This document shows positions 2,745-57,283 of a stretch of DNA of 64,000 bases, piece after piece; position 1 is the stretch's first letter; every line of letters starts with the position of its first letter. Made by a program: the position numbers and the translations under genes. Source of the DNA: a virus. The stretch lies in the IMG/VR virus record IMGVR_UViG_3300045918_000145, positions 3,872-67,871 of that record; one strand, written 5' to 3'. Below the pieces are notes generated by a model, which worked only from the letters and a program-made list of their open reading frames with translations, was not told where the DNA came from and did not search any database.

Positions 2745-3920
2745 ATGGATGCACCTGTATATAAAGAAGCTGAACAAGCCCTTAAAGTAGCAAAGATTAC
2801 ACTAATGATGCAGAAAAATACTGTCTGTTACACGACTGTAGTTTTCTCATTGAAACAAGAAATAACTGCAGATATTCCAAACATGACTACTGCAGCAACA
2901 GACGGAAAACATCTGTACATTCATCCAGATTTCTTTATGGGTCTGTCTCCAAATGAACGTCTTACGCTATTGGCTCACGAAGCTCTACATGTACTCCTAG
3001 ACCACATGCACCGCAAAGGGGATAGGGATCATAAGCTTTTCAATATAGCCGCTGACTACGTTATCAATGGATCACTGGTGAATGCACAATATGCCTTACC
3101 TAAAGGCGGATTACATGATCATAAATATGACGGTATGACCACCGAGCAAGTATATAAACTTCTTGAAAAGAAAAACAATCAGCAGAAACAAGAATTATTC
3201 GACAAATGTAAAGATGGATCACTGAATGGTAATGACATCACTTACCCAGATCAAGTAGACCCTGGTGAAGCTGTTACTCAGGATGAAGTAACCAAGATCA
3301 TTCTACGAGCTGTGACTCAAGCTAAGGCTATGGGTCAGCCAGCAGGTACGATGCCAGCTGAAATAGAATTGGCACTGCAGCATACCTTAAATCCACCTTT
3401 ACCTTGGCATATCATTCTAAGCCATTACCTCACAGAATTTGCTAAAGAGGACTTCACTTTTAGAAGACCTAATAGACGATTCTTACCTGATTCATATTTG
3501 CCAACAGCTCACTCAGAAGCTGTATGCAATTTAGCTATCTGCGTGGATATCTCATCATCCGTAACTGACCACGAATTCAACGTGTTCATTACTAAGATAG
3601 CTGAGATAAAGAATTCTATGAATCCACAGGAAACTACAGTTGTCTCATTCAATACTCAAATCACTGGTGTACAGAAACTGACGGCAGATGATAATCCATT
3701 GACCAAACTCAAATTCAAAGGTAGGGGTGGTACAGCTATTGCTCCCGTTCTCGAATGGGCAGCAGAAAACAAACCAACAGTAATGATCATATTTACTGAT
3801 GGTGAGTTCACCCAAGTAGAGCCAAAAAACAAAGGCGTACCTATGCTTTGGCTCATTCATGACAACCCTATGTGGAAGACTAAGTGGGGAAGAGTAATTC
3901 ATTACAATATAACTAAATAG
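2745..3920 (+). CDS. Metallopeptidase plus VWA-domain protein (N4 gp25-like, DUF2201 type)
   Basis: TAATDG, HEALH zincin motif, DISSS MIDAS, GRGGT, FTDGE; start refined to the ATG after AGGAGG. Confidence 0.85.
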   Translation: MDAPVYKEAEQALKVAKITLMMQKNTVCYTTVVFSLKQEITADIPNMTTAATDGKHLYIHPDFFMGLSPNERLTLLAHEALHVLLDHMHRKGDRDHKLFNIAADYVINGSLVNAQYALPKGGLHDHKYDGMTTEQVYKLLEKKNNQQKQELFDKCKDGSLNGNDITYPDQVDPGEAVTQDEVTKIILRAVTQAKAMGQPAGTMPAEIELALQHTLNPPLPWHIILSHYLTEFAKEDFTFRRPNRRFLPDSYLPTAHSEAVCNLAICVDISSSVTDHEFNVFITKIAEIKNSMNPQETTVVSFNTQITGVQKLTADDNPLTKLKFKGRGGTAIAPVLEWAAENKPTVMIIFTDGEFTQVEPKNKGVPMLWLIHDNPMWKTKWGRVIHYNITK

Positions 3921-4001: not shown

Positions 4002-4751
4002 ATGAACCCGATTAAACGCTTAAATGATCTGACACACGCAGAACTTCTGGCAATTGTATATGACTCAGAAGATTACAATAACCTAATTGATCTTGAGTGT
4101 GCTCATAGAGGTATCAGTTTGTTACCACCGTATCCTGGGCTTGAACCTAGCAAGACAGCTGCTAAACCAGATACTCAACTTTTCAAAGTAGGTAACTGGG
4201 GATTTGCAACAGTCGATGTTGCTAATGAAGTTATAAACTTTATGGTTAGCAAAGGTATATGGAAAGAAGAATCCCAATCAGGTGTTAATGTCATGATGCC
4301 TTTGGAAGAAAATAGTTATTACTATCCTGAAATCAAAAAAGCATTAGTTTACACTCAGACTGCGTATGACCAAATAAAAGATGAAGTTGATAAACAAGCC
4401 ACACTCTATAAAGAGTGGAAAGAAAACAATGACGTTTATTCAGCAATATGGAAAGAGCGCAAAGAAGTAATTAAAGACTTCAACTCTCAGCGTGACTACG
4501 CTACTGAACTGAAGAACAACATGATCAAAACTCACAACAGTCTTCAGCGTTACCTAGTACTATCTCAGGGATCTTATCCAATAGCTGTAAGCTTCCTTAA
4601 AGAAGCTGACAAACTTGGAGACTTACGTGTTGATGAAAATGATAGTGTCTTCTACAAATGCACACGTAGACAAGAGCATTTAATTGCAACCAGGGAAACA
4701 CATCAACAGAATTGTATGTCTGACCTGCTAGGTGTTGATTCACTTACGTAG
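4002..4751 (+). CDS. Hypothetical protein
   Basis: Long ORF with AGGAG RBS. Confidence 0.7.
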   Translation: MNPIKRLNDLTHAELLAIVYDSEDYNNLIDLECAHRGISLLPPYPGLEPSKTAAKPDTQLFKVGNWGFATVDVANEVINFMVSKGIWKEESQSGVNVMMPLEENSYYYPEIKKALVYTQTAYDQIKDEVDKQATLYKEWKENNDVYSAIWKERKEVIKDFNSQRDYATELKNNMIKTHNSLQRYLVLSQGSYPIAVSFLKEADKLGDLRVDENDSVFYKCTRRQEHLIATRETHQQNCMSDLLGVDSLT

Positions 4752-4764
4752 GTGAGGAGAAACC

Positions 4765-5097
4765 ATGTCAGAAGAAATAGTAGAAAAACCAAAGCGTAAG
4801 ATATCCAACACTGAGCTGGATAATGTAAAGAACTATCTGTCTATTGAGGTAGCATATAACTTTTCAATCATACTGCCGTATAAAGAAGGAATAGCTTTTC
4901 TAGCTGCTCTTGAAAACGTAGAAAGAGTTAGTATGCCTCACTATGGACAATCACGCATTAAGTTTAATATTGAAAGATTTGAAATTAAAACTGAGATAGT
5001 TTCTCAAGCTTTTTATCGTGAACAAAAGATGAACCACCTATTAGGAGTAACAGATGAGCAATATAATTCTCACACCATGTCAGAAGACTGCTACTGA
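4765..5097 (+). CDS. Hypothetical protein
   Basis: GAGGAG RBS; precedes the helicase. Confidence 0.65.
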   Translation: MSEEIVEKPKRKISNTELDNVKNYLSIEVAYNFSIILPYKEGIAFLAALENVERVSMPHYGQSRIKFNIERFEIKTEIVSQAFYREQKMNHLLGVTDEQYNSHTMSEDCY

Positions 5098-11924: not shown

Positions 11925-12116
11925 ATGAAACTAAAAACGATTAAACCAATGGAGACTCGTAAAGACTCTATTAGTTTTGTAATCGAATTTGAACCAAGAC
12001 TTAAACGTAATGTTGGTATTGGTTATGTTGATGAGGGTGCAGCATCACTAGATGATTTTAAAAAGCATCCAATAGTTGAACGATCTTGGCTAGACATAAA
12101 GGAGTTTTCAAAATGA
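11925..12116 (+). CDS. Hypothetical protein
   Basis: AGGAG RBS. Confidence 0.5.
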   Translation: MKLKTIKPMETRKDSISFVIEFEPRLKRNVGIGYVDEGAASLDDFKKHPIVERSWLDIKEFSK

Positions 12117-14293
12117 AAGATCTATCCACACTGACATTCCATCCAACCTCAGAGAAACTGGTAGAGTTATTGTGTGAAAAGACACAGAACTCAAATCCTC
12201 AGTTCTTTCGTATGATGGTTTGCTATTACATCTGTAAAATGGCATCCAGCATGAGAGTAACCATTAGTACAAAAGACCGTGGCGAAATACCAATTAACTT
12301 CTACGGCATCAATCTGGGTGTTAGTGGTATTGGTAAAGGTCATAGTACTAACATTCTTGAAGATCAAGTAATTGATAAATTCAAGGGTACTTTTTTTGAT
12401 GCAACACTTGTCAAAGTAGCGGAGGCTAACCTTAAAGTACTATCTGTTAAACGGATGAATATTCATAACAATAATCCAAACCTAACAACTCCTATGATGG
12501 ATTTTGATGAAGCACATGCACAGGTTACTAAAGAGTATGAATCTCTTGGTAAGCTTGCTTTCTCATTTGACTCAGGAACTACCGCTGCTGTAAAGCAGAT
12601 GAGGCATAAATTGCTCATGTCCGGTATTGGAGCTATGAATCTTGAGATGGATGAAATAGGTTCTAACCTTCTTGGTAATGTGGATGTTCTAGGAACATTC
12701 CTTGAGCTGTTTGATGTTGGTAAAGTCAAACAGAAGTTAACCAAGAATACAAAAGAATCTGTACGATCAGAAGAGATTGACGGTAAGACTCCTACCAATC
12801 TTATGCTCTTTGGTACTCCAGCTAAACTACTTGATGGAGCTAAGACAGAAGATGAGTTCTGGTCATTCATATCTACTGGCTACGGTAGACGTTGCTTTTT
12901 TGGCTACACTAAAGGCAGTGGTAGAAACAAAAGTCTTACTGCCAATGATGTTTATGACAAACTGACTAGTGTACAATCAGACCAACTGATGACATCGTTG
13001 TCTAATCAGTTTGCTGCTCTTGCTGCAGAAGTTAACTACAACAAGAAGCTACAGGTGTCTAAAGATGTAAGTCTACTGTTGATCAGCTACAAACTTCATT
13101 GTGAAGACCAGGCGGATAGACTAGGTGAACATGAAGAGATGCTTAAAGCTGAACTGTCACATCGTTATTTCAAAGCTCTGAAGCTTGCAGGAGGATTCGC
13201 TTTTGTAGATGGTCATGGTGAGATTACTGAAGACAACATGTATCATGCAATAGCTATGGCTGAAGAGTCTGGTAAAGCATTTAAGCTAATGCTCAATCAA
13301 GATAAGAACTATGTCAAGCTTGCAAAGTATATTGCCAGCATAGGCAGAGAAGTCACTCATGTTGACCTTACAGAGAGCTTATCCTTCTACAAAGGAGCAC
13401 TTTCTCAGAAGTCAGATCTTATGCAACTAGCTGTAGCTTGGGGCTATAAGAATTCAGTTATTATCAAACGTAAGATTGACAACAACATTGAATTCATAAC
13501 TGGTGAGAAACTGACTGAAACCAATCTTGAAGAAATGTATCTGTCACACAGTAAAGACATCGCCGTTGACTATGACAATGTACTTGCTCCATTTGATAGA
13601 CTTGTTGATCTTGTTAAAATGAAAGATCATCACTGGTGCAGTCATCATTCTACAAATGGCAGACGTTCAGAAGAGAATCTTGCACCTGGATTTAATCTGG
13701 TAGTATTGGATGTGGACGGTGGAACTAAACTCGAAACAGTTAAAATTCTACTCAAGGATTTTAAATACATAATCCATACAACCAAACGTCACACCCCGCA
13801 TGACCACAGATTCAGAGTAATCATGCCTACCAACTACATTCTGAAATTGAATGACACGGACTTTAAAGAGTTCATGCGTAACATCTACGAATGGCTTCCA
13901 TTTGACTCTGATACTGAAACTGGTCAACGTGCTCGTAAGTGGGCTACCACAGATGGTTGTGAAGTGTTTACCAATGATGGTGAATCACTTGATGCTTTAC
14001 TATTTATTCCTCGTACCAGCAAGAATGATGAGCGTCAGAAGATCATCCTCAACCACCAGGATATGACAAGCATGGAGCGTTGGTTTGTTACTAAGATGGA
14101 AACAGGTAACAGAAACAATCAGCTGATAAAATATGCTTTGATGCTGGTTGATGCCGGTTATCAATATGTTGACATTGAACTGAAAGTAAACCAGTTAAAT
14201 CAGAAACTCGAATCACCACTGTCTCCTGAAGAACTAAAGACAACTGTATTTCAAACCAGTTATAAAAAATACATTCAACAGGGAGGACAATAA
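12113..14293 (+). CDS. DNA primase (N4 gp43-like) with C-terminal PriCT-like domain
   Basis: SGIGKG, EMDEIGSNL, VVLDVDGG, HTTKRH, GNRNNQL; synteny. Confidence 0.88.
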   Translation: MKDLSTLTFHPTSEKLVELLCEKTQNSNPQFFRMMVCYYICKMASSMRVTISTKDRGEIPINFYGINLGVSGIGKGHSTNILEDQVIDKFKGTFFDATLVKVAEANLKVLSVKRMNIHNNNPNLTTPMMDFDEAHAQVTKEYESLGKLAFSFDSGTTAAVKQMRHKLLMSGIGAMNLEMDEIGSNLLGNVDVLGTFLELFDVGKVKQKLTKNTKESVRSEEIDGKTPTNLMLFGTPAKLLDGAKTEDEFWSFISTGYGRRCFFGYTKGSGRNKSLTANDVYDKLTSVQSDQLMTSLSNQFAALAAEVNYNKKLQVSKDVSLLLISYKLHCEDQADRLGEHEEMLKAELSHRYFKALKLAGGFAFVDGHGEITEDNMYHAIAMAEESGKAFKLMLNQDKNYVKLAKYIASIGREVTHVDLTESLSFYKGALSQKSDLMQLAVAWGYKNSVIIKRKIDNNIEFITGEKLTETNLEEMYLSHSKDIAVDYDNVLAPFDRLVDLVKMKDHHWCSHHSTNGRRSEENLAPGFNLVVLDVDGGTKLETVKILLKDFKYIIHTTKRHTPHDHRFRVIMPTNYILKLNDTDFKEFMRNIYEWLPFDSDTETGQRARKWATTDGCEVFTNDGESLDALLFIPRTSKNDERQKIILNHQDMTSMERWFVTKMETGNRNNQLIKYALMLVDAGYQYVDIELKVNQLNQKLESPLSPEELKTTVFQTSYKKYIQQGGQ

Positions 14294-14688
14294 TGATTTG
14301 GAATGATTACGAGATAAAAGTAAAAGCTATTCCTAAAGAACAGTTTAATTCTAAAGAATACGTAACAGAACGCATTGGTGTCTTCGTTGGTACGCAAGTT
14401 CAAATAAACGTTGAACGAGCACGACTTGTTATAGAAGCCAAAGAAAAAGAATTGGATATCAGGACACGGTACTATGCACAATATAATGCTATCATGGCTG
14501 AATACAAAACTAAACTCTATGGTGACTATAACCTATCAGTAGAGATACTTGATATGGCTTACGCTCATGCATACGAAAGAGGCCATTCATCAGGATACTC
14601 TGAAATAGAAGGCATCTTTTATGAAGTGATAAGTGATTACGCAAAAGCATACGATCTTGGTTTAAAGGACGGTAGAAATGGTAAATAA
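14293..14688 (+). CDS. Hypothetical protein
   Basis: GGAGG RBS; AYERGHSSG motif. Confidence 0.65.
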   Translation: MIWNDYEIKVKAIPKEQFNSKEYVTERIGVFVGTQVQINVERARLVIEAKEKELDIRTRYYAQYNAIMAEYKTKLYGDYNLSVEILDMAYAHAYERGHSSGYSEIEGIFYEVISDYAKAYDLGLKDGRNGK

Positions 14689-15397
14689 CAATCTCGTACT
14701 CATATGTGGAACAAGCGGAGGAGGCAAATCAGCCTCACTCCGTAACATTCCTGATCCTGCAGGAGTGATCTATCTTAACTGCGAATCTGGTAAACTTCTG
14801 CCATTCGCGTCTAAGTTTAAGTCACTCACTATCACTGATCCTATGGATGTATATCAGGCTTTCACAGAAGCTGAAAGTATGCCAGCCATACACACTATAG
14901 TAGTTGACAGTGTGACATTCCTCATGGACATGTTTGAGAGCGTCTATGTAATTGGCGCATCTGACACTATGAAGATGTGGGGAGAGTATCAACAGTTCTT
15001 TAAGAATCTGATGCAACAGCACGTAGCTAAATCGACTAAGAATGTCATCTTCACAGCCCATACTCTTAACGTACTCAATGAAAATGAAATGGTTGTTGAG
15101 TGTAAAGTTCCTATCAAAGGAGCACTTAAGAACAACGGATTGGAAGCCTATTTCTCAACAGTCGTTACGGCTCGTAAGATAAGCATTAAAGGACTGAAGG
15201 ACTATCAGAATGAAAATCTGATTATTACTCCTGAAGAAGAGATGCTTGGTTTCAAATATGTATATCAAACCAAGATAACCAAGGAAACCATTAACCATAG
15301 GATTAGATCTTCTATGGGTCTATGGTCTACTGCTGAAACATTCATTGATAATGATGCTCAGATTCTTTTGAATAGGTTACATAAGTATCATTCCTGA
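14678..15397 (+). CDS. AAA ATPase, Sak4-like (N4 gp44-like)
   Basis: GTSGGGKS Walker A, IVVDSVTF Walker B. Confidence 0.88.
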   Translation: MVNNNLVLICGTSGGGKSASLRNIPDPAGVIYLNCESGKLLPFASKFKSLTITDPMDVYQAFTEAESMPAIHTIVVDSVTFLMDMFESVYVIGASDTMKMWGEYQQFFKNLMQQHVAKSTKNVIFTAHTLNVLNENEMVVECKVPIKGALKNNGLEAYFSTVVTARKISIKGLKDYQNENLIITPEEEMLGFKYVYQTKITKETINHRIRSSMGLWSTAETFIDNDAQILLNRLHKYHS

Positions 15398-15409
15398 TTA
15401 CACGAACAT

Positions 15410-16270
15410 CCTTGGGGCGATAACAGTCTCCCCTGAAGATATGAGATAAGGCGGCATCCATTGATACCAATAATAATGGTAGGCCATAGAAGGACTCTGG
15501 CGAAGGAAAGTCGGTAACTAAACCTGACAGCCTGGAAATAGACAGGAACGCGGTGATAGCACTAGAGAAAGAGATTGGGAGCGAAAGGCAGTGAGACTCT
15601 GCGGCTCTAGTGCTTTCATGCATTATTACAGTTTGGGTTACACCCCAAGAACGGAGATTGCCGCGTAAGCAAAGCGTCGTTGGTATAAGGTGTAACCCAA
15701 TTCAATTTGGATAAAGTGATTGAGGGCATAAGATAGAGGCGGATTCTATTAACTTAGACGGCTGAACAATGAGCGACCTCAGCTTTATCCAAATAAATAT
15801 GGCAGGGTTAGACAATGCTGAATGATTTCTCCACTCTTAATATAGATTTACGGTGTGTATCTATGAGAGAAATGTATGATACATCATTCAGTCCCGATAG
15901 GCGGGAAAACGTCAGGTGAGAGAGAAACTCATCGAGTACGGTAGAATCCGTACCTAGTGGCAATGAGACACTGCTACACAGGGATCAATACTCCAGAAGA
16001 AATGCGAGCCTATCAGCCATTATAAAAAAGTAACTCAACTCTTCCCCCTCTCGGAACACATGGGAACGCCTGACAGACTGAAGAGGTCAATGGCAGGACG
16101 TGGACTAGGCACGAAGCATGTGGGTTGACCGTGAAACCGATAAGGATACCTAGGAAGCACACGGATGTAGGCGGAGCCTGACCGAAATCTGACGCAACAA
16201 TAAGTAACAGTACACTTAGGGGCTAAAGAATCTGTGACCTAGCTGGTATCCAGAGTGAATCCAGCAACTA
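15410..16270 (+). ncRNA. Large structured ncRNA or array of ncRNA domains, family unassigned
   Basis: Several 10-12 bp closing stems, nested helices and multiple T-loop-like hairpins; no credible ORF on the + strand; strand inferred from the flanking operon. Confidence 0.65.
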
Positions 16271-16287
16271 AACTAAAAGGAGTATAA

Positions 16288-16614
16288 ATGATTGAAGCGT
16301 ACAAAAAAGCAATACTGAACTATGCGAACTTCCAAGGAGTTGCGACACGTTCAGAGTACTGGCTATTCCTGTTGTGCAATGTGCTTATTGGATTCTTTAT
16401 TGGATTCATTGGAGCATTAATATCACCTAATAGTGTTGCACCTATGACAACACTATATCAATTACTTGTTCTTATGCCATCCATATCTTTGACTGTCAGG
16501 CGTACGCATGATTCAAATCATTCTGGCTGGTGGGCATTACTACCAATTGTAAATTTTATCTTTATGTTTTTTCCCTCAGTACCAAGCCGTTACAGAATAA
16601 TTGAAGTTAACTAA
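16288..16614 (+). CDS. DUF805-family inner-membrane protein
   Basis: YANFQGVATRSEYW, SLTVRRTHDSNHSGWW; three hydrophobic segments. Confidence 0.85.
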   Translation: MIEAYKKAILNYANFQGVATRSEYWLFLLCNVLIGFFIGFIGALISPNSVAPMTTLYQLLVLMPSISLTVRRTHDSNHSGWWALLPIVNFIFMFFPSVPSRYRIIEVN

Positions 16615-16659
16615 GCAGTAAACATCGTCCGAGATGTTAAACCACAAAGGAGAAACAAA

Positions 16660-17409
16660 ATGGGATTATTCGACAAAGTATCAACCAGCAGCACAGTGAA
16701 AGCAGAAGTTGACGTAGTACGTGGTCAGAAGAAAGAGCCGTTGGCATCCAACATTTACAATGCAATAATTAAGTATGCCTACGCAATCAAATCGAAAGGA
16801 GGAGCTTTGGGAGTTACAGTTGTACTGACTACTCCTGAAGGACGTGAACTGAAGGAAATTCAGTACATCACATCTGGTGACGCAAAAGGAAACAAAACCT
16901 ATTACGAGAAAGAGAATGCTGAAACCAAAGCAATGGAACAGTTCTCACTTCCAGGTTTTAATGCTATTGATTCACTCTGTCGTCTGGTACTGGGTAAAGG
17001 AGTTCTTGAGTGTGATAACGAAAAACGCACCATCAAACTCTACGACTACGATACAAAAACTGAATTGCCAAAAGAAGTTGATATGCTGATCGACCTCGTT
17101 GGCAAACCAGTAGCTGTAGCTGTTCTAAATCAGATTGAAGATAAGACAGCAAAGAGTGCTCAGACTGGTGCTTATGAGCCAACTGGCAAAACCTACTCAA
17201 CCAACGTAATCGACAAGTACCTTGATGCAGATGATCGTAAGACTGCTCAGGAGAAAGCCAATAACGTTGAAGCCACGTTTGCTGAAGCTTGGCTTACTAA
17301 ATGGAAGGATCAAGTATCCAACCAGTCCACAACTTCTAAAACGGCTGGACAGCCAGGTGCGCCAGCTGCTACTGGGGAGGTAGCAAAAAAGACTAACCTC
17401 TTTGGGTAG
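16660..17409 (+). CDS. ssb: Single-stranded DNA-binding protein / late activator (N4 gp45-like)
   Basis: Synteny; YITSG...GNKTYYE, LPGFN and C-terminal ...LFG typical of N4-type SSB. Confidence 0.8.
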   Translation: MGLFDKVSTSSTVKAEVDVVRGQKKEPLASNIYNAIIKYAYAIKSKGGALGVTVVLTTPEGRELKEIQYITSGDAKGNKTYYEKENAETKAMEQFSLPGFNAIDSLCRLVLGKGVLECDNEKRTIKLYDYDTKTELPKEVDMLIDLVGKPVAVAVLNQIEDKTAKSAQTGAYEPTGKTYSTNVIDKYLDADDRKTAQEKANNVEATFAEAWLTKWKDQVSNQSTTSKTAGQPGAPAATGEVAKKTNLFG

Positions 17410-17473
17410 TCTGCTAGCTTTATTGGCTCGCATACTTGCTGGCTTGACTAGATTCATTTTATATCCAACTGCA

Positions 17474-17504
17474 GTAGAGCTACGTTGCATAAACGTAGCT
17501 CTAC
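17474..17504. repeat. Perfect 13-bp inverted repeat in the intergenic spacer after ssb
   Basis: GTAGAGCTACGTT-gcata-AACGTAGCTCTAC. Confidence 0.85.
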
Positions 17505-17575
17505 TCGTTGGCAGCAAACCAAAATTACAATTGCCATACACGCCAATGTACCAACCACCTAAAAGGAGAAGATTT

Positions 17576-17899
17576 ATGCAAGTTACTTTGAATCAGGCTG
17601 AAATTGAAAAAGCACTTATTAACTATGTAGGACAACAGGGAATCAGTATTACTGGCAAGAACGTGGATGTAACGCTCGTAGCGGGTCGTTCGCCTAATGG
17701 TATGACTGCTAGTATTAATATCTCTAACGATGGTGTCACAGAGGCTAATATCGTTACTACTCGTACCTTTGGATCTGCTACTAATAGCAACAATATTAAT
17801 TGCACTTCCGTAGTTGAAGCATCTGATGTTGCGGGTGAGCCAACACCTGTAGAAGAAGATGAAGCAGTTACTGCTCAGCGTCCTCTGTTTGGTGCATAA
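17576..17899 (+). CDS. N4 gp46-like protein
   Basis: MQVTLNQAEIEKAL... N-terminus, acidic tail, LF end; start refined after AAGGAG. Confidence 0.65.
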   Translation: MQVTLNQAEIEKALINYVGQQGISITGKNVDVTLVAGRSPNGMTASINISNDGVTEANIVTTRTFGSATNSNNINCTSVVEASDVAGEPTPVEEDEAVTAQRPLFGA

Positions 17900-18108
17900 T
17901 GTTCAAAACTTTATTTGATGTTATAAAATCAGCGGTAGTGTTGTTGTTACTCATTGCAGGAATGATGACACTACCATTTTTTATTGTAGCATGTGTTGTT
18001 TTACTGGTTGGCTATGGATTATTTGTAGCCATACACGAATCAAGATTGAAGAAGGAGAGAATGAATGAAGCCAACAAAAACAAAGCAAAAACCACAGCCA
18101 CTGAATAA
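17899..18108 (+). CDS. Small membrane protein
   Basis: Long hydrophobic stretch followed by a basic tail. Confidence 0.55.
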   Translation: MFKTLFDVIKSAVVLLLLIAGMMTLPFFIVACVVLLVGYGLFVAIHESRLKKERMNEANKNKAKTTATE

Positions 18109-18439
18109 CGACTTTGTTATTGCAGAAATGGTTAAAAAGATAACAGTCATCAAGCCAATCAATACAGGAGCAAAATATGATCATGGCAAAGCAAGACATG
18201 ATCTAATTACTCCTGAAATTGAAACTGAAATGGCAGAGATTCTTACTCAAGGTGTAGATGAGTATGGTGAGGAATCTTGGAAGACTATCGAAAATCCAAT
18301 TAAACGCTATACAGCAGCCTTGAAGCGTCATACTAATGCTATGGCAAGGGGTGAATTGATTGACCCTAAATCAGGCAAATACCACGCTTCTCATATAGCA
18401 GTTAATGCTATGTTCCTACAGTACTTTCAAAATAAGTAA
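18065..18439 (+). CDS. dATP/dGTP diphosphohydrolase-domain protein (DUF5664 type)
   Basis: GAKYDHGKARHDLI...YGEESWK...RYTAALKRH...DPKSGKYHASH. Confidence 0.8.
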   Translation: MKPTKTKQKPQPLNNDFVIAEMVKKITVIKPINTGAKYDHGKARHDLITPEIETEMAEILTQGVDEYGEESWKTIENPIKRYTAALKRHTNAMARGELIDPKSGKYHASHIAVNAMFLQYFQNK

Positions 18440-18455: not shown

Positions 18456-18481
18456 AAAAGGGCTGATCACTCAGCCCTTTT
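18456..18481. terminator. Bidirectional rho-independent terminator between the convergent middle and late operons
   Basis: AAAAGGGCTGA-tcac-TCAGCCCTTTT. Confidence 0.85.
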
Positions 18482-56385: not shown

Positions 56386-56860
56386 TACTATCTCCTCCAC
56401 ACTGATTCCACAGGTGCTCTGCTTCATCATGATCCCTACAGCGTATCAGATCTGGATTGATAACGTAAGTCTTTCTGAAGTCAGTGAAGTGATACTTTAA
56501 CTTTTCATCAGTCTTATGAGGAATGAACTGACTGGTCAGACCTCGTATTAAACCAACAGACTTAAGCTCAGCAATGTTCCTACTTAGTGTTTCCTTGTCA
56601 GTCTTATCCATCTCTGTAACTGCCACGTAGTTACAAACATTATTATTCAAAGACCGATTATACTTCAAGTTATTAAACACACTGAAGGCTCGCTTACTTA
56701 CTTTATCCAATAGATCAAACACATCTTCAGCCATAGTCTTCACCTTTGCATTAGTCATAGGGCCAATAACAGAGAAGGGCACACGTATCTTATTTACGCT
56801 CCTTCTCCGTATCAGTACCTCAGAGGTTTCTTCATTATACGTTACTTTACCAAAGCTCAT
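56372..56860 (-). CDS. Winged-HTH protein, RepL-like
   Basis: TLSRNIAELKSVGLI...YVINPDLI; ATGA-coupled start. Confidence 0.45.
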   Translation of the reverse strand: MSFGKVTYNEETSEVLIRRRSVNKIRVPFSVIGPMTNAKVKTMAEDVFDLLDKVSKRAFSVFNNLKYNRSLNNNVCNYVAVTEMDKTDKETLSRNIAELKSVGLIRGLTSQFIPHKTDEKLKYHFTDFRKTYVINPDLIRCRDHDEAEHLWNQCGGDSNVIR

Positions 56861-57126
56861 CCTACGACAACCCAATCCTCAGCAAGTATATCAGTCTGTG
56901 ACGCAAGCCAAGGAACAACATTATCTTGAGCAGTCTTCATAGCAAGATAAGCACTATACGGAACTAGGTCATCTTTGAATACACCATTCATTGTACCAAA
57001 CTTATTACCACTAGCAGGATACACATTCTCAGGAACATAATAAATAAACATGCCCTTACCATTCCAACCAAACCTGGCTATCTTTTGCCCTTGCTTCAAT
57101 AGAACTAACGCATCTCCAAAATTCAT
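56857..57126 (-). CDS. DUF2829 / Tad2-like protein (89 aa)
   Basis: MNFGDAL..LKQGQKIARFGWNGKGMFI...VPWLASQTDILAEDW. Confidence 0.85.
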   Translation of the reverse strand: MNFGDALVLLKQGQKIARFGWNGKGMFIYYVPENVYPASGNKFGTMNGVFKDDLVPYSAYLAMKTAQDNVVPWLASQTDILAEDWVVVG

Positions 57127-57127
57127 G

Positions 57128-57283
57128 TTACTTCTCCTTAGCTGACATTGCTGTGAACTCAATGTTATGAATCGCCATTGTTAGTGCTCCAATGATTTCC
57201 AGATGAGTAAGATCCCCAGTAACAGCAATAGATAATGAGTTGTCTTCACCCATTGATACAATGATACTTCCTGTGTTAGTCAT
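57128..57283 (-). CDS. Small hypothetical protein (51 aa)
   Basis: Translated by hand; AGGAG RBS. Confidence 0.5.
   Translation of the reverse strand: MTNTGSIIVSMGEDNSLSIAVTGDLTHLEIIGALTMAIHNIEFTAMSAKEK

Follow-up and report, generated by a model that had tools for sequence, protein, structure and literature searches.

A gene-free gap in the replication operon of a freshwater N4-like phage appears to hold six unclassified, independently exchanged RNA modules

The IMG/VR record IMGVR_UViG_3300045918_000145 (71.8 kb) is the source of the 64,000-nucleotide stretch analyzed here (positions 3,872 to 67,871 of the record; hereafter, the window), which is part of the genome of a freshwater N4-like phage, in agreement with our own gene annotation. 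The + strand operon in the window comprises, in this order, the genes for DNA polymerase, an exonuclease (phrog_2139), a primase (phrog_2135), a small open reading frame (ORF), and a Sak4-like ATPase, then a gap, and then the genes for a DUF805 membrane protein and an SSB. The ORFs are tightly packed on both sides of the gap (12086-14293, 14293-14688, and 14678-15397 upstream; 16288-16614 and 16660-17409 downstream), which itself is gene-free over 890 nucleotides (nt; 15398-16287) and sits between a stop codon and a ribosome-binding site. Comparison of homologous loci indicates that this gap consists of six modules that fold separately and that close relatives have gained, lost, duplicated, and rearranged as whole units. 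The locus contains the following features:

14678-15397, + strand: gene for a Sak4-like/AAA_24 ATPase (N4 gp44-like; PHROG phrog_124, 1.1e-42; Pfam AAA_24)
15398-15630, + strand: module A, a multi-stem junction of about 230 nt (covariance model R1; covariation of helix P5)
15631-15706, + strand: module B1, a hairpin with a 12-base-pair (bp) closing stem, 15633-15644/15689-15700 (six copies)
15705-15794, + strand: module B2, a hairpin with a 12-bp closing stem, 15705-15716/15783-15794, and a variable interior (one homologue)
15795-16025, + strand: module B3, two sub-domains in an AUGGC/GCCAU closing helix (homologue in relative L039)
16036-16172, + strand: module C1, a compact pseudoknotted domain of about 135 nt (six copies)
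16160-16275, + strand: module C2, conserved GUAGGCG..GCCUGACCGAAAUCUGACG and then a hairpin, GCUGG-..-CCAGC, at about 16243-16266 (from comparison)
16277-16290, + strand: Shine-Dalgarno sequence AAGGAG (16277-16282) and the DUF805 ATG (16288), read from the sequence
16288-16614, + strand: DUF805 membrane protein gene (Pfam DUF805, 4.4e-21)
16660-17409, + strand: N4 gp45-type SSB gene (PHROG phrog_743, 3.1e-56)

No open frame exists in the gap. Each of the six frames of 15398-16287 contains 9-24 stop codons, with TAA, TAG, and TGA all present in every frame, which rules out stop-codon reassignment and agrees with the preliminary description of this region, where no plausible + strand ORF had been found. 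The antisense stop-free stretches have no Pfam or PHROG family match, proteins encoded in the same slot of relatives gave no tblastn match to the gap, and a blastn search of the gap against 50,697 phage records produced no match. Seven perfect 10-mer inverted-repeat matches within 120 nt were detected in the gap, compared to a mean of 0.07 in 300 shuffles, the highest count among the 71 tiles (890 nt) of the window. The minimum free energy (MFE) of the whole gap is -260.7 kcal/mol on the + strand, compared to -234.2 +/- 6.6 in shuffles (z -4.0), and the - strand yields a z of -3.2. The GC content is 0.43-0.51, against about 0.37-0.41 in the flanks, and the gap strand is purine-rich. Neither a sigma-70 promoter nor an intrinsic terminator was found within the gap. 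An Rfam 15 cmscan of the window gave no matches at gathering score, and a scan of 15200-16500 at E<=10 returned only four chance-level matches to unrelated families, so that the modules are unclassified; six homologous loci gave no GOLLD or ROOL match in Rfam.

Close relatives of the phage were gathered from a large protein index through homologues of Sak4 and SSB (75-89% identity), and their loci, labeled L, were compared with the gap using nhmmer and profile maps. The modules are arranged as follows:

Window: A-B1-B2-B3-C1-C2, DUF805, SSB
L030: B1-B2-(about 300 nt of other sequence)-C1-C2, DUF805, A, orf129, SSB
L039: B1-B3-A-C1, SSB
L032: A-B1-A
L038: A-B1-(part of C2), SSB
L040: A-C1, DUF805, SSB
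L042 and L043: B1-C1, SSB
L031: C1-C2, SSB
L029: C2, SSB
L033 and L037: A alone
L002: module D, then A, SSB

The copies number 11 for A, six each for B1 and C1, four to five for C2, and two each for B2 and B3; with two exceptions, the copies found outside the window belong to uncultured N4-like phages assembled from metagenomes. Because A sits before B1, after B3, after an ORF, or twice in a locus, it is not part of one obligatory fold, and no covarying inter-module helix was seen. Most modules are separated by single-stranded, mostly AU-rich linkers, and none of them is repeated elsewhere in the window. The modules of the window and L030 are 67-84% identical, compared to 36-55% identity at the third codon positions of Sak4, SSB, and DUF805; judging from these sequences, the modules are under purifying selection. 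The preliminary description had interpreted the region as a single large ornate RNA (about 870 nt) resembling GOLLD or ROOL. The dense structure and non-coding status that it reported are retained, but a single large RNA is not supported, given that the six units occur independently and in different orders and copy numbers in close relatives. The alternative that it gave, either an unclassified family of RNAs or a processed array of them, is close to the outcome of the comparison, with the processing being what we infer.

The modules have a narrow distribution. In relatives found in IMG/VR through the Sak4-like protein, SSB mostly follows the Sak4 gene directly, with no gap, as it does in the more distant N4-like phages, and only the first ~160 nt of the gap recur, in L002 (in the same position) and in L016 (in another phage). 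Pattern scans of IMG/VR for A recovered only L002 and L016 as genuine matches, plus two chance matches inside genes; the scans for C2 and C1 yielded none and one chance match inside a gene, respectively. The 10 matches to A in a metagenome pattern scan were all chance matches in coding sequence, and a scan of bacterial genomes gave 42 matches, compared to about 30 expected by chance on a rough estimate, none of them confirmed by model R1. A search with the DUF805 protein reached distant relatives only (at most 46% identity), none useful for finding the RNA. The module families appear to be undescribed and rare.

The slot contains further sequences in relatives. Module D, which is not present in the window, occupies the same slot in L001 (about 4720-4810), L002 (4885-4978), and L030 (about 4500-4560); it is closed by GUGGGUGAUGA/UCAUCACCCAC and contains conserved GAGCGAAAGCCGGUACUGCC and CCGUGUACGUUGAA, of which L030 has the second motif only. 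Other stretches of 80-300 nt in the gaps of relatives lie outside the named modules, which implies that the module pool is larger than six. Matches to group I introns were found beside HNH/NUMOD4 genes in L032 (620-795, 2911-3168, and 3663-3850) and L038 (226-2086), at or within the primase and Sak4 genes; these are sub-threshold (30-36 bits, compared to a gathering score of 50), with the three Intron_gpI matches of L032 at E-values of 9e-6 to 3e-4.

A search with covariance model R1 identified 11 copies of module A with E-values between 1e-23 and 1e-48, and nothing else credible. The predicted fold of A includes these elements:

15398-15560, + strand: core of module A
15414-15433, + strand: hairpin P1
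15440-15445/15495-15499, + strand: long-range helix enclosing a variable hairpin
15531-15546, + strand: 3' hairpin CCUG-GAAAUAGA-CAGG inside CUG/CGG
about 15552-15620, + strand: long hairpin P5, including the 10-bp stem 15558-15567/15605-15614 and the GCAG-UGAGACU-CUGC tip (covaries)

In the alignment of the 11 copies, 95.5% of the cells are paired, and compensatory changes are present in 20 of the 25 pairs, a level reached by none of 500 shuffles; the covariation score is 0.56, compared to no more than 0.16 with slid partners. Two U-G pairs are conserved, in 10 and 7 of the 11 sequences, and because these would be A-C on the other strand, A is predicted to fold on the + strand. There is one copy of A per genome scanned, and the locus order of L032 lists it twice. 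In six loci, A starts no more than 5 nt from the upstream stop codon, behind three genes (Sak4, Nmad5, and DUF805); in the window, the stop codon of the full-length Sak4-like gene (239 amino acids) abuts it. A hammerhead-like reading of CUGACAG...GAAA in A was rejected on inspection, as the core has AG where GA would be needed and Rfam gave no match, and an RNase P-like reading of GGAAAGUCGG obtained no support from Rfam.

Module A also occurs in the phage to which locus L016 belongs (G001), a complete 62-kb genome with terminal repeats, in which a protein search detected no homologue of the N4-type vRNAP or SSB. The single protein that this phage has in common with the window is Tad2-like (Thoeris anti-defence 2-like, PF11195), encoded at 56857-57162 on the - strand of the window and at 7567-8148 in L016. 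From these comparisons, A was transferred into an unrelated phage. In G001, it is preceded by two tRNA-like hairpins, has a terminator-like hairpin and a U-run in place of P5, and is followed by a helicase gene. The two tRNA-like elements (L016 9260-9420; T-arms GGUGG-UUCAAUU-CCACC and UGGG-UUCGAAU-CCCA) were not called by ARAGORN and may be degenerate or unusual tRNAs; the Tad2-like gene of G001 lies about 1.3 kb upstream of A.

The three B modules differ in the number of homologues. Module B1, found in the window, L030, L032, L038, L039, and L042, has an inner CCAA/UUGG helix; its tip is variable, whereas its tail, AAUUCAAU, is conserved. B1 shows a compensatory G-C to A-U change as well as a U-G wobble that would pair on the + strand only (MFE z -4.4). 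The sole homologue of B2 (MFE z -4.8) is L030 4181-4298, where the stem has an A-U to G-C replacement (ATAAAG/CTTTAT compared to ATAGAG/CTCTAT). Module B3 is predicted to contain two sub-domains:

15818-15891, + strand: first sub-domain, a hairpin with the stem 15818-15826/15883-15891 (predicted fold)
15896-15902/16008-16014, + strand: GAUAGGC/GCCUAUC helix closing the second sub-domain, a multi-hairpin junction (comparison with L039)

Over about 235 aligned nt, B3 and L039 2772-3035 have 49 predicted pairs, of which five are compensated. These include GAUAGGC/GCCUAUC, the possible long-range or pseudoknot pairing of the preliminary description, which is kept in L039 with one compensatory change. 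Conserved U-G pairs are present in B3, too, and would be A-C mismatches on the other strand. No match to B3 was found in L030 in the profile map.

Module C1 combines several tertiary pairings. The hairpin loops of S1 and S3 are complementary (CCUCU/AGAGG), hairpin S4 has a loop that pairs with CCUAG farther downstream, and S5a and S5b form an H-type pseudoknot. When the helices were checked per sequence, seven of the seven were kept with altered sequence in the six copies: the loop-loop contact varies as CCUCU/AGAGG, CCCAC/GUGGG, and ACUCC/GGAGU, the loop-downstream contact as CUAGG/CCUAG and UCGG/CCGA, and the S5 pseudoknot as CCGUG/CACGG, ACCAG/CUGGU, and GCAACUU/AAGUUGC. The MFE of C1 carries no thermodynamic signal (z +1.9), as expected of a knotted fold, and the window and L030 copies are 84% identical, compared to 50-55% at third codon positions. 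Copies of C2 are present in L030, L031, and L029, and its 3' part in L038; the terminal hairpin of C2 covaries. Each of B1, B2, and C2 shows at least one compensated pair.

All six stem pairings listed in the preliminary description are perfect complements, and its four small hairpins are located where they had been placed. Homologues carry compensatory changes in the stems of the modules, the check that it had asked for. The pairing 16144-16150/16245-16251, which would join C1 and C2, does not hold: it is perfect in the window but lost in L030 and L031, and three relatives have C1 without C2. The T-arm-like hairpins are real as hairpins; three of the four lie in the second sub-domain of B3 and, together with the tip of the last hairpin of A, they are ordinary covarying hairpins. 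The 7-nt loops of B3 lack the UUCRA T-loop consensus, and ARAGORN called no tRNA genes in the window, L016, L002, L001, L004, or all of G001, in line with the initial finding of no cloverleaf; a tRNA or tRNA-like element was rejected as an explanation on both counts. The reported repeat of CCTGACAG is also present, with two copies in the gap (15523 and 16069) and one elsewhere in the window (33087). Three copies of CCTGAC lie in the gap (15523, 16069, and 16177; z 8.5 compared to shuffles), and the conserved cores of A, C1, and C2 contain one each. Modules A and C1 also have in common the pattern CCUGACAG-(hairpin)-CAGGA(A)CG(C/U)GG and may be distant paralogues.

Downstream of the modules, a AAAAGGAG block near the DUF805 start is common to the leaders of the window, L030, and L029. 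The DUF805 gene is an accessory insert, present, according to the gene tables, in the window, L030, and L040, and missing from the other relatives. The SSB gene has a short leader of its own (16615-16659) with a hairpin and a ribosome-binding site. We compared this leader in the window with the 60 nt upstream of SSB in L029, L033, and L038-L043: the sequence of the hairpin stem varies between loci (e.g., ACCCU-AUA-AGGGU) and is followed by AAAACAUAAAAAGGAG. The 3-nt loop in some copies of this hairpin recalls N4-type hairpin promoters.

The folded molecule is probably RNA of the + strand, because the conserved wobbles fit only this strand, which is that of the genes, although single-stranded DNA of the same strand would be compatible as well. 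We favor, giving it an even chance, the reading in which small structured RNA genes form an accessory island in the gap, are co-transcribed with the replication operon, are processed, and act in trans. In a clade of freshwater N4-like phages, the island would be located in the middle (replication) operon, after the Sak4-like ATPase gene and before the SSB gene. The modules would be transcribed within the operon RNA, given that no promoter or terminator lies inside the gap and that A starts at the stop codon of the preceding gene; they would be released at the linkers, as in the processing of phage tRNA clusters, and, as small stable RNAs, would then target host or phage factors in trans. A role in host takeover or counter-defence is a guess from the accessory, patchy distribution, and the decoy or anti-defence role raised in the preliminary description is likewise speculative. 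Consistent with this reading are the unit-wise shuffling and duplication of the modules, their patchy presence among close relatives, their complex folds, and the move of A into an unrelated phage, where it would end a transcript. Several points weigh against it. Transcription, processing, and stability of the modules are what we infer, and no partner protein, target, or processing signal was identified for them; B2 and B3 are supported by one homologue each; the modules lie upstream of SSB in every N4-like genome, with C1 or C2 invariably closest to the following ORF, an arrangement that a cis-regulatory leader would explain as well; and the Tad2-like gene of G001, which belongs to a common phage family, is weak context for a counter-defence role. 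A broader proposal, which we regard as unlikely, is that phages keep "RNA islands", hot spots that exchange complex RNA genes in the manner of anti-defence genes, and that A and C1 would represent new classes of trans-acting RNAs that bind or mimic host factors (e.g., decoys for RNA- or tRNA-directed defences) or are small ribozymes or ligand sensors.

Less probable than the accessory island, yet a possibility to be taken seriously, is that the modules are cis-acting leaders of the DUF805-SSB mRNA that affect the stability, processing, or translation of the highly expressed SSB message, for instance, as an SSB-bound operator like that of T4 gene 32, as barriers to 5'-end-dependent decay, or as RNase III or RNase E sites that uncouple SSB. 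All the N4-like loci have their modules between Sak4 and SSB, in gene orientation and with no promoter or terminator of their own, and either C1, which is pseudoknotted, or C2 is nearest to the next ORF. There is also a precedent: 12 candidate structured RNAs have been reported immediately 5' of phage gp32 (SSB) genes, and translational self-repression by T4 gp32 operates through a leader pseudoknot (PMC10690425). Like the gene 32 operator, the locus described here has structured, partly pseudoknotted RNA (C1) upstream of a phage SSB gene, and an AU-rich stretch with UAAA repeats before the ribosome-binding site. However, the SSB is of an unrelated type (N4 gp45), the modules are far larger and more numerous, and most N4-like relatives lack them, with SSB keeping its own hairpin-plus-RBS (ribosome-binding site) leader either way. 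In the window, the modules and SSB are not adjacent, having the DUF805 gene and a further spacer between them; the place of A relative to the other modules varies, being after DUF805 in L030; in G001, which has no N4-type SSB, A stands before a helicase gene and has a terminator-like end; and multi-stem junctions and kissing loops are more elaborate than stabilizers or RNase sites require. Single hairpins between cistrons, located at points of gene exchange, are familiar from T7 early mRNAs (RNase III hairpins) and T4-like phages (PeSL hairpins). The modules similarly lie between operon cistrons and mark gene exchange, but the RNase III and PeSL elements are single irregular hairpins that lack conserved junctions, whereas A, B3, and C1 each combine several helices and have unpaired nucleotides that are conserved.

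The other explanations are, in our view, much weaker. DNA-level elements, such as a replication origin or priming site, N4-type hairpin promoters, or recombination and insertion hot spots (PeSL- or MITE-like), are improbable. N4-like phages do use DNA hairpin promoters, in which a GC-rich stem of at least 4-6 bp, with a loop of 3-4 nt, precedes the start by about 13-15 nt (PMC9163698), the region belongs to the replication module, the 12-bp stems of B1 and B2 are conserved in sequence and not merely in pairing, and the module boundaries match points of gene gain and loss. The modules, however, measure 70-230 nt, and the stems of the gap enclose 6-70 nt or whole domains, so an N4-type hairpin promoter was rejected; the conserved G-U pairs fit the + strand and not the template strand; the kissing loops, the pseudoknots, and the conservation of junction nucleotides are signs of RNA tertiary structure; and the absence of any module repeat from the window, with A found once per genome, shows that these are not dispersed repeats. 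A single ornate RNA of about 870 nt whose domains co-fold into one GOLLD/ROOL-like particle is highly improbable. Its length would be in the ROOL size range, the fold is dense and multi-domain, the host is a phage, and one module lies beside tRNA-like hairpins in another phage, as GOLLD and ROOL often lie beside tRNAs (PMC5737381); but no Rfam model, including GOLLD and ROOL, matches at E<=10, the domains are separate, reordered, split by an ORF, and duplicated in relatives, and the C1-C2 pairing is not conserved. The least probable explanation is decayed sequence, that is, a lost gene or a remnant of a group I intron or homing endonuclease, which might be suggested by the Nmad5 and other small genes that relatives carry in the slot and by the group I introns and HNH genes in the primase and Sak4 genes of relatives. 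Pseudogene and intron remnants were rejected: the slot proteins show no tblastn similarity, the antisense frames match no family, the Rfam group I model (Intron_gpI) finds the introns of L032 and nothing in the window region, and the window primase and Sak4 genes are uninterrupted, with the gap located between complete genes. The modules covary and are conserved well above the neutral rate, contrary to what decay would produce.

Among the known systems, the small RNA (sRNA) cluster of the N4-like phage LUZ7 is the closest functional analogue of the putative accessory island and a precedent for it, and phage tRNA islands are the closest in layout. In LUZ7, several abundant non-coding RNAs of less than 250 nt (sRNA1-3), one of them apparently produced by processing, come from the gap between orf69 and orf70, and the gene order is identical, gp42-gp43-gp44-gp45 (PMC9163698). 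The LUZ7 cluster resembles the island in belonging to the same + strand operon and in occupying a gene-free structured gap (398 nt; MFE z -6.2); unlike the island, it lies four genes downstream of SSB, has its own transcription start site and terminators, and shows no sequence or model similarity to A, and neither covariation nor modular shuffling has been described for it. Phage tRNA clusters are likewise arrays of RNA genes in one slot, in gene orientation, with a content that varies among close relatives. They are co-transcribed and processed, as the modules would be, and may co-encode small stable RNAs, such as the species 1 and 2 RNAs of T4, but none of the modules is a tRNA. GOLLD and ROOL are phage-associated RNAs with complex folds (PMC5737381). 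The summed length of the six modules falls in their size range, and the phage location is the same, but there is no detectable similarity to the modules, and the units described here are separable and reordered. No tRNA lies in the window, and tRNA-like hairpins lie beside A in G001 only.

Two further classes were rejected. A protein sponge of the CsrB/RsmZ type is contradicted by GGA and AGGA counts at the chance level (19 GGA, compared to 19.0 +/- 3.6 expected; 7 AGGA, compared to 6.2), and a guide-RNA array (CRISPR, TIGR-Tas, or VIPR) by the lack of a repeated module and by the neighboring genes, which are Sak4-like, DUF805, and SSB. The DUF805 and DUF805b RNA motifs (Weinberg 2017) are reportedly Rfam families located upstream of DUF805 genes. 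Neither was among the matches at E<=10 upstream of the window DUF805 gene, and C1 and C2 also precede SSB genes where no DUF805 gene stands. The main text of PMC5737381 does not mention the DUF805 motif.

Additional features were observed elsewhere in the window and in the relatives. A perfect 14-bp hairpin (17473-17505) directly 3' of SSB lies within a listed ORF with a TTG start (17402-17899); PHROG matches to this ORF start at residue 59 only, so that the true start is probably downstream and the hairpin intergenic. An 11-bp palindrome at 18456-18481 (AAAAGGGCTGA/TCAGCCCTTTT), between the convergent + strand operon and a gene for a 2549-amino-acid protein on the opposite strand (40-45% identity to its L002 counterpart), resembles a bidirectional terminator. 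The window also contains a gene for the N-terminal domain of a dATP/dGTP diphosphohydrolase (18065-18439), and genes for Nmad5 (nucleotide-modification-associated) proteins fill the Sak4-SSB slot in L029, L033, and L038; together, these genes suggest that phages of this clade may have modified DNA bases.

RNAs with multi-stem junctions and pseudoknots often perform sophisticated biochemistry, and few of them are known from phages. At least three of the folds at this locus (A, B3, and C1) have covariation support and no counterpart in the databases, and the differing combinations in relatives amount to a natural experiment, which indicates that the modules are self-contained and where to cut. 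For the search for large RNAs, the locus is a caution: a long, dense gap can be a string of small RNAs, and a GOLLD-like molecule cannot be recognized from its length and fold density alone. If the modules are indeed stable, released RNAs, N4-like phages would join those that encode trans-acting RNAs other than tRNAs; if they are leaders instead, the control region of this phage SSB gene would be unusually elaborate and fast-evolving.

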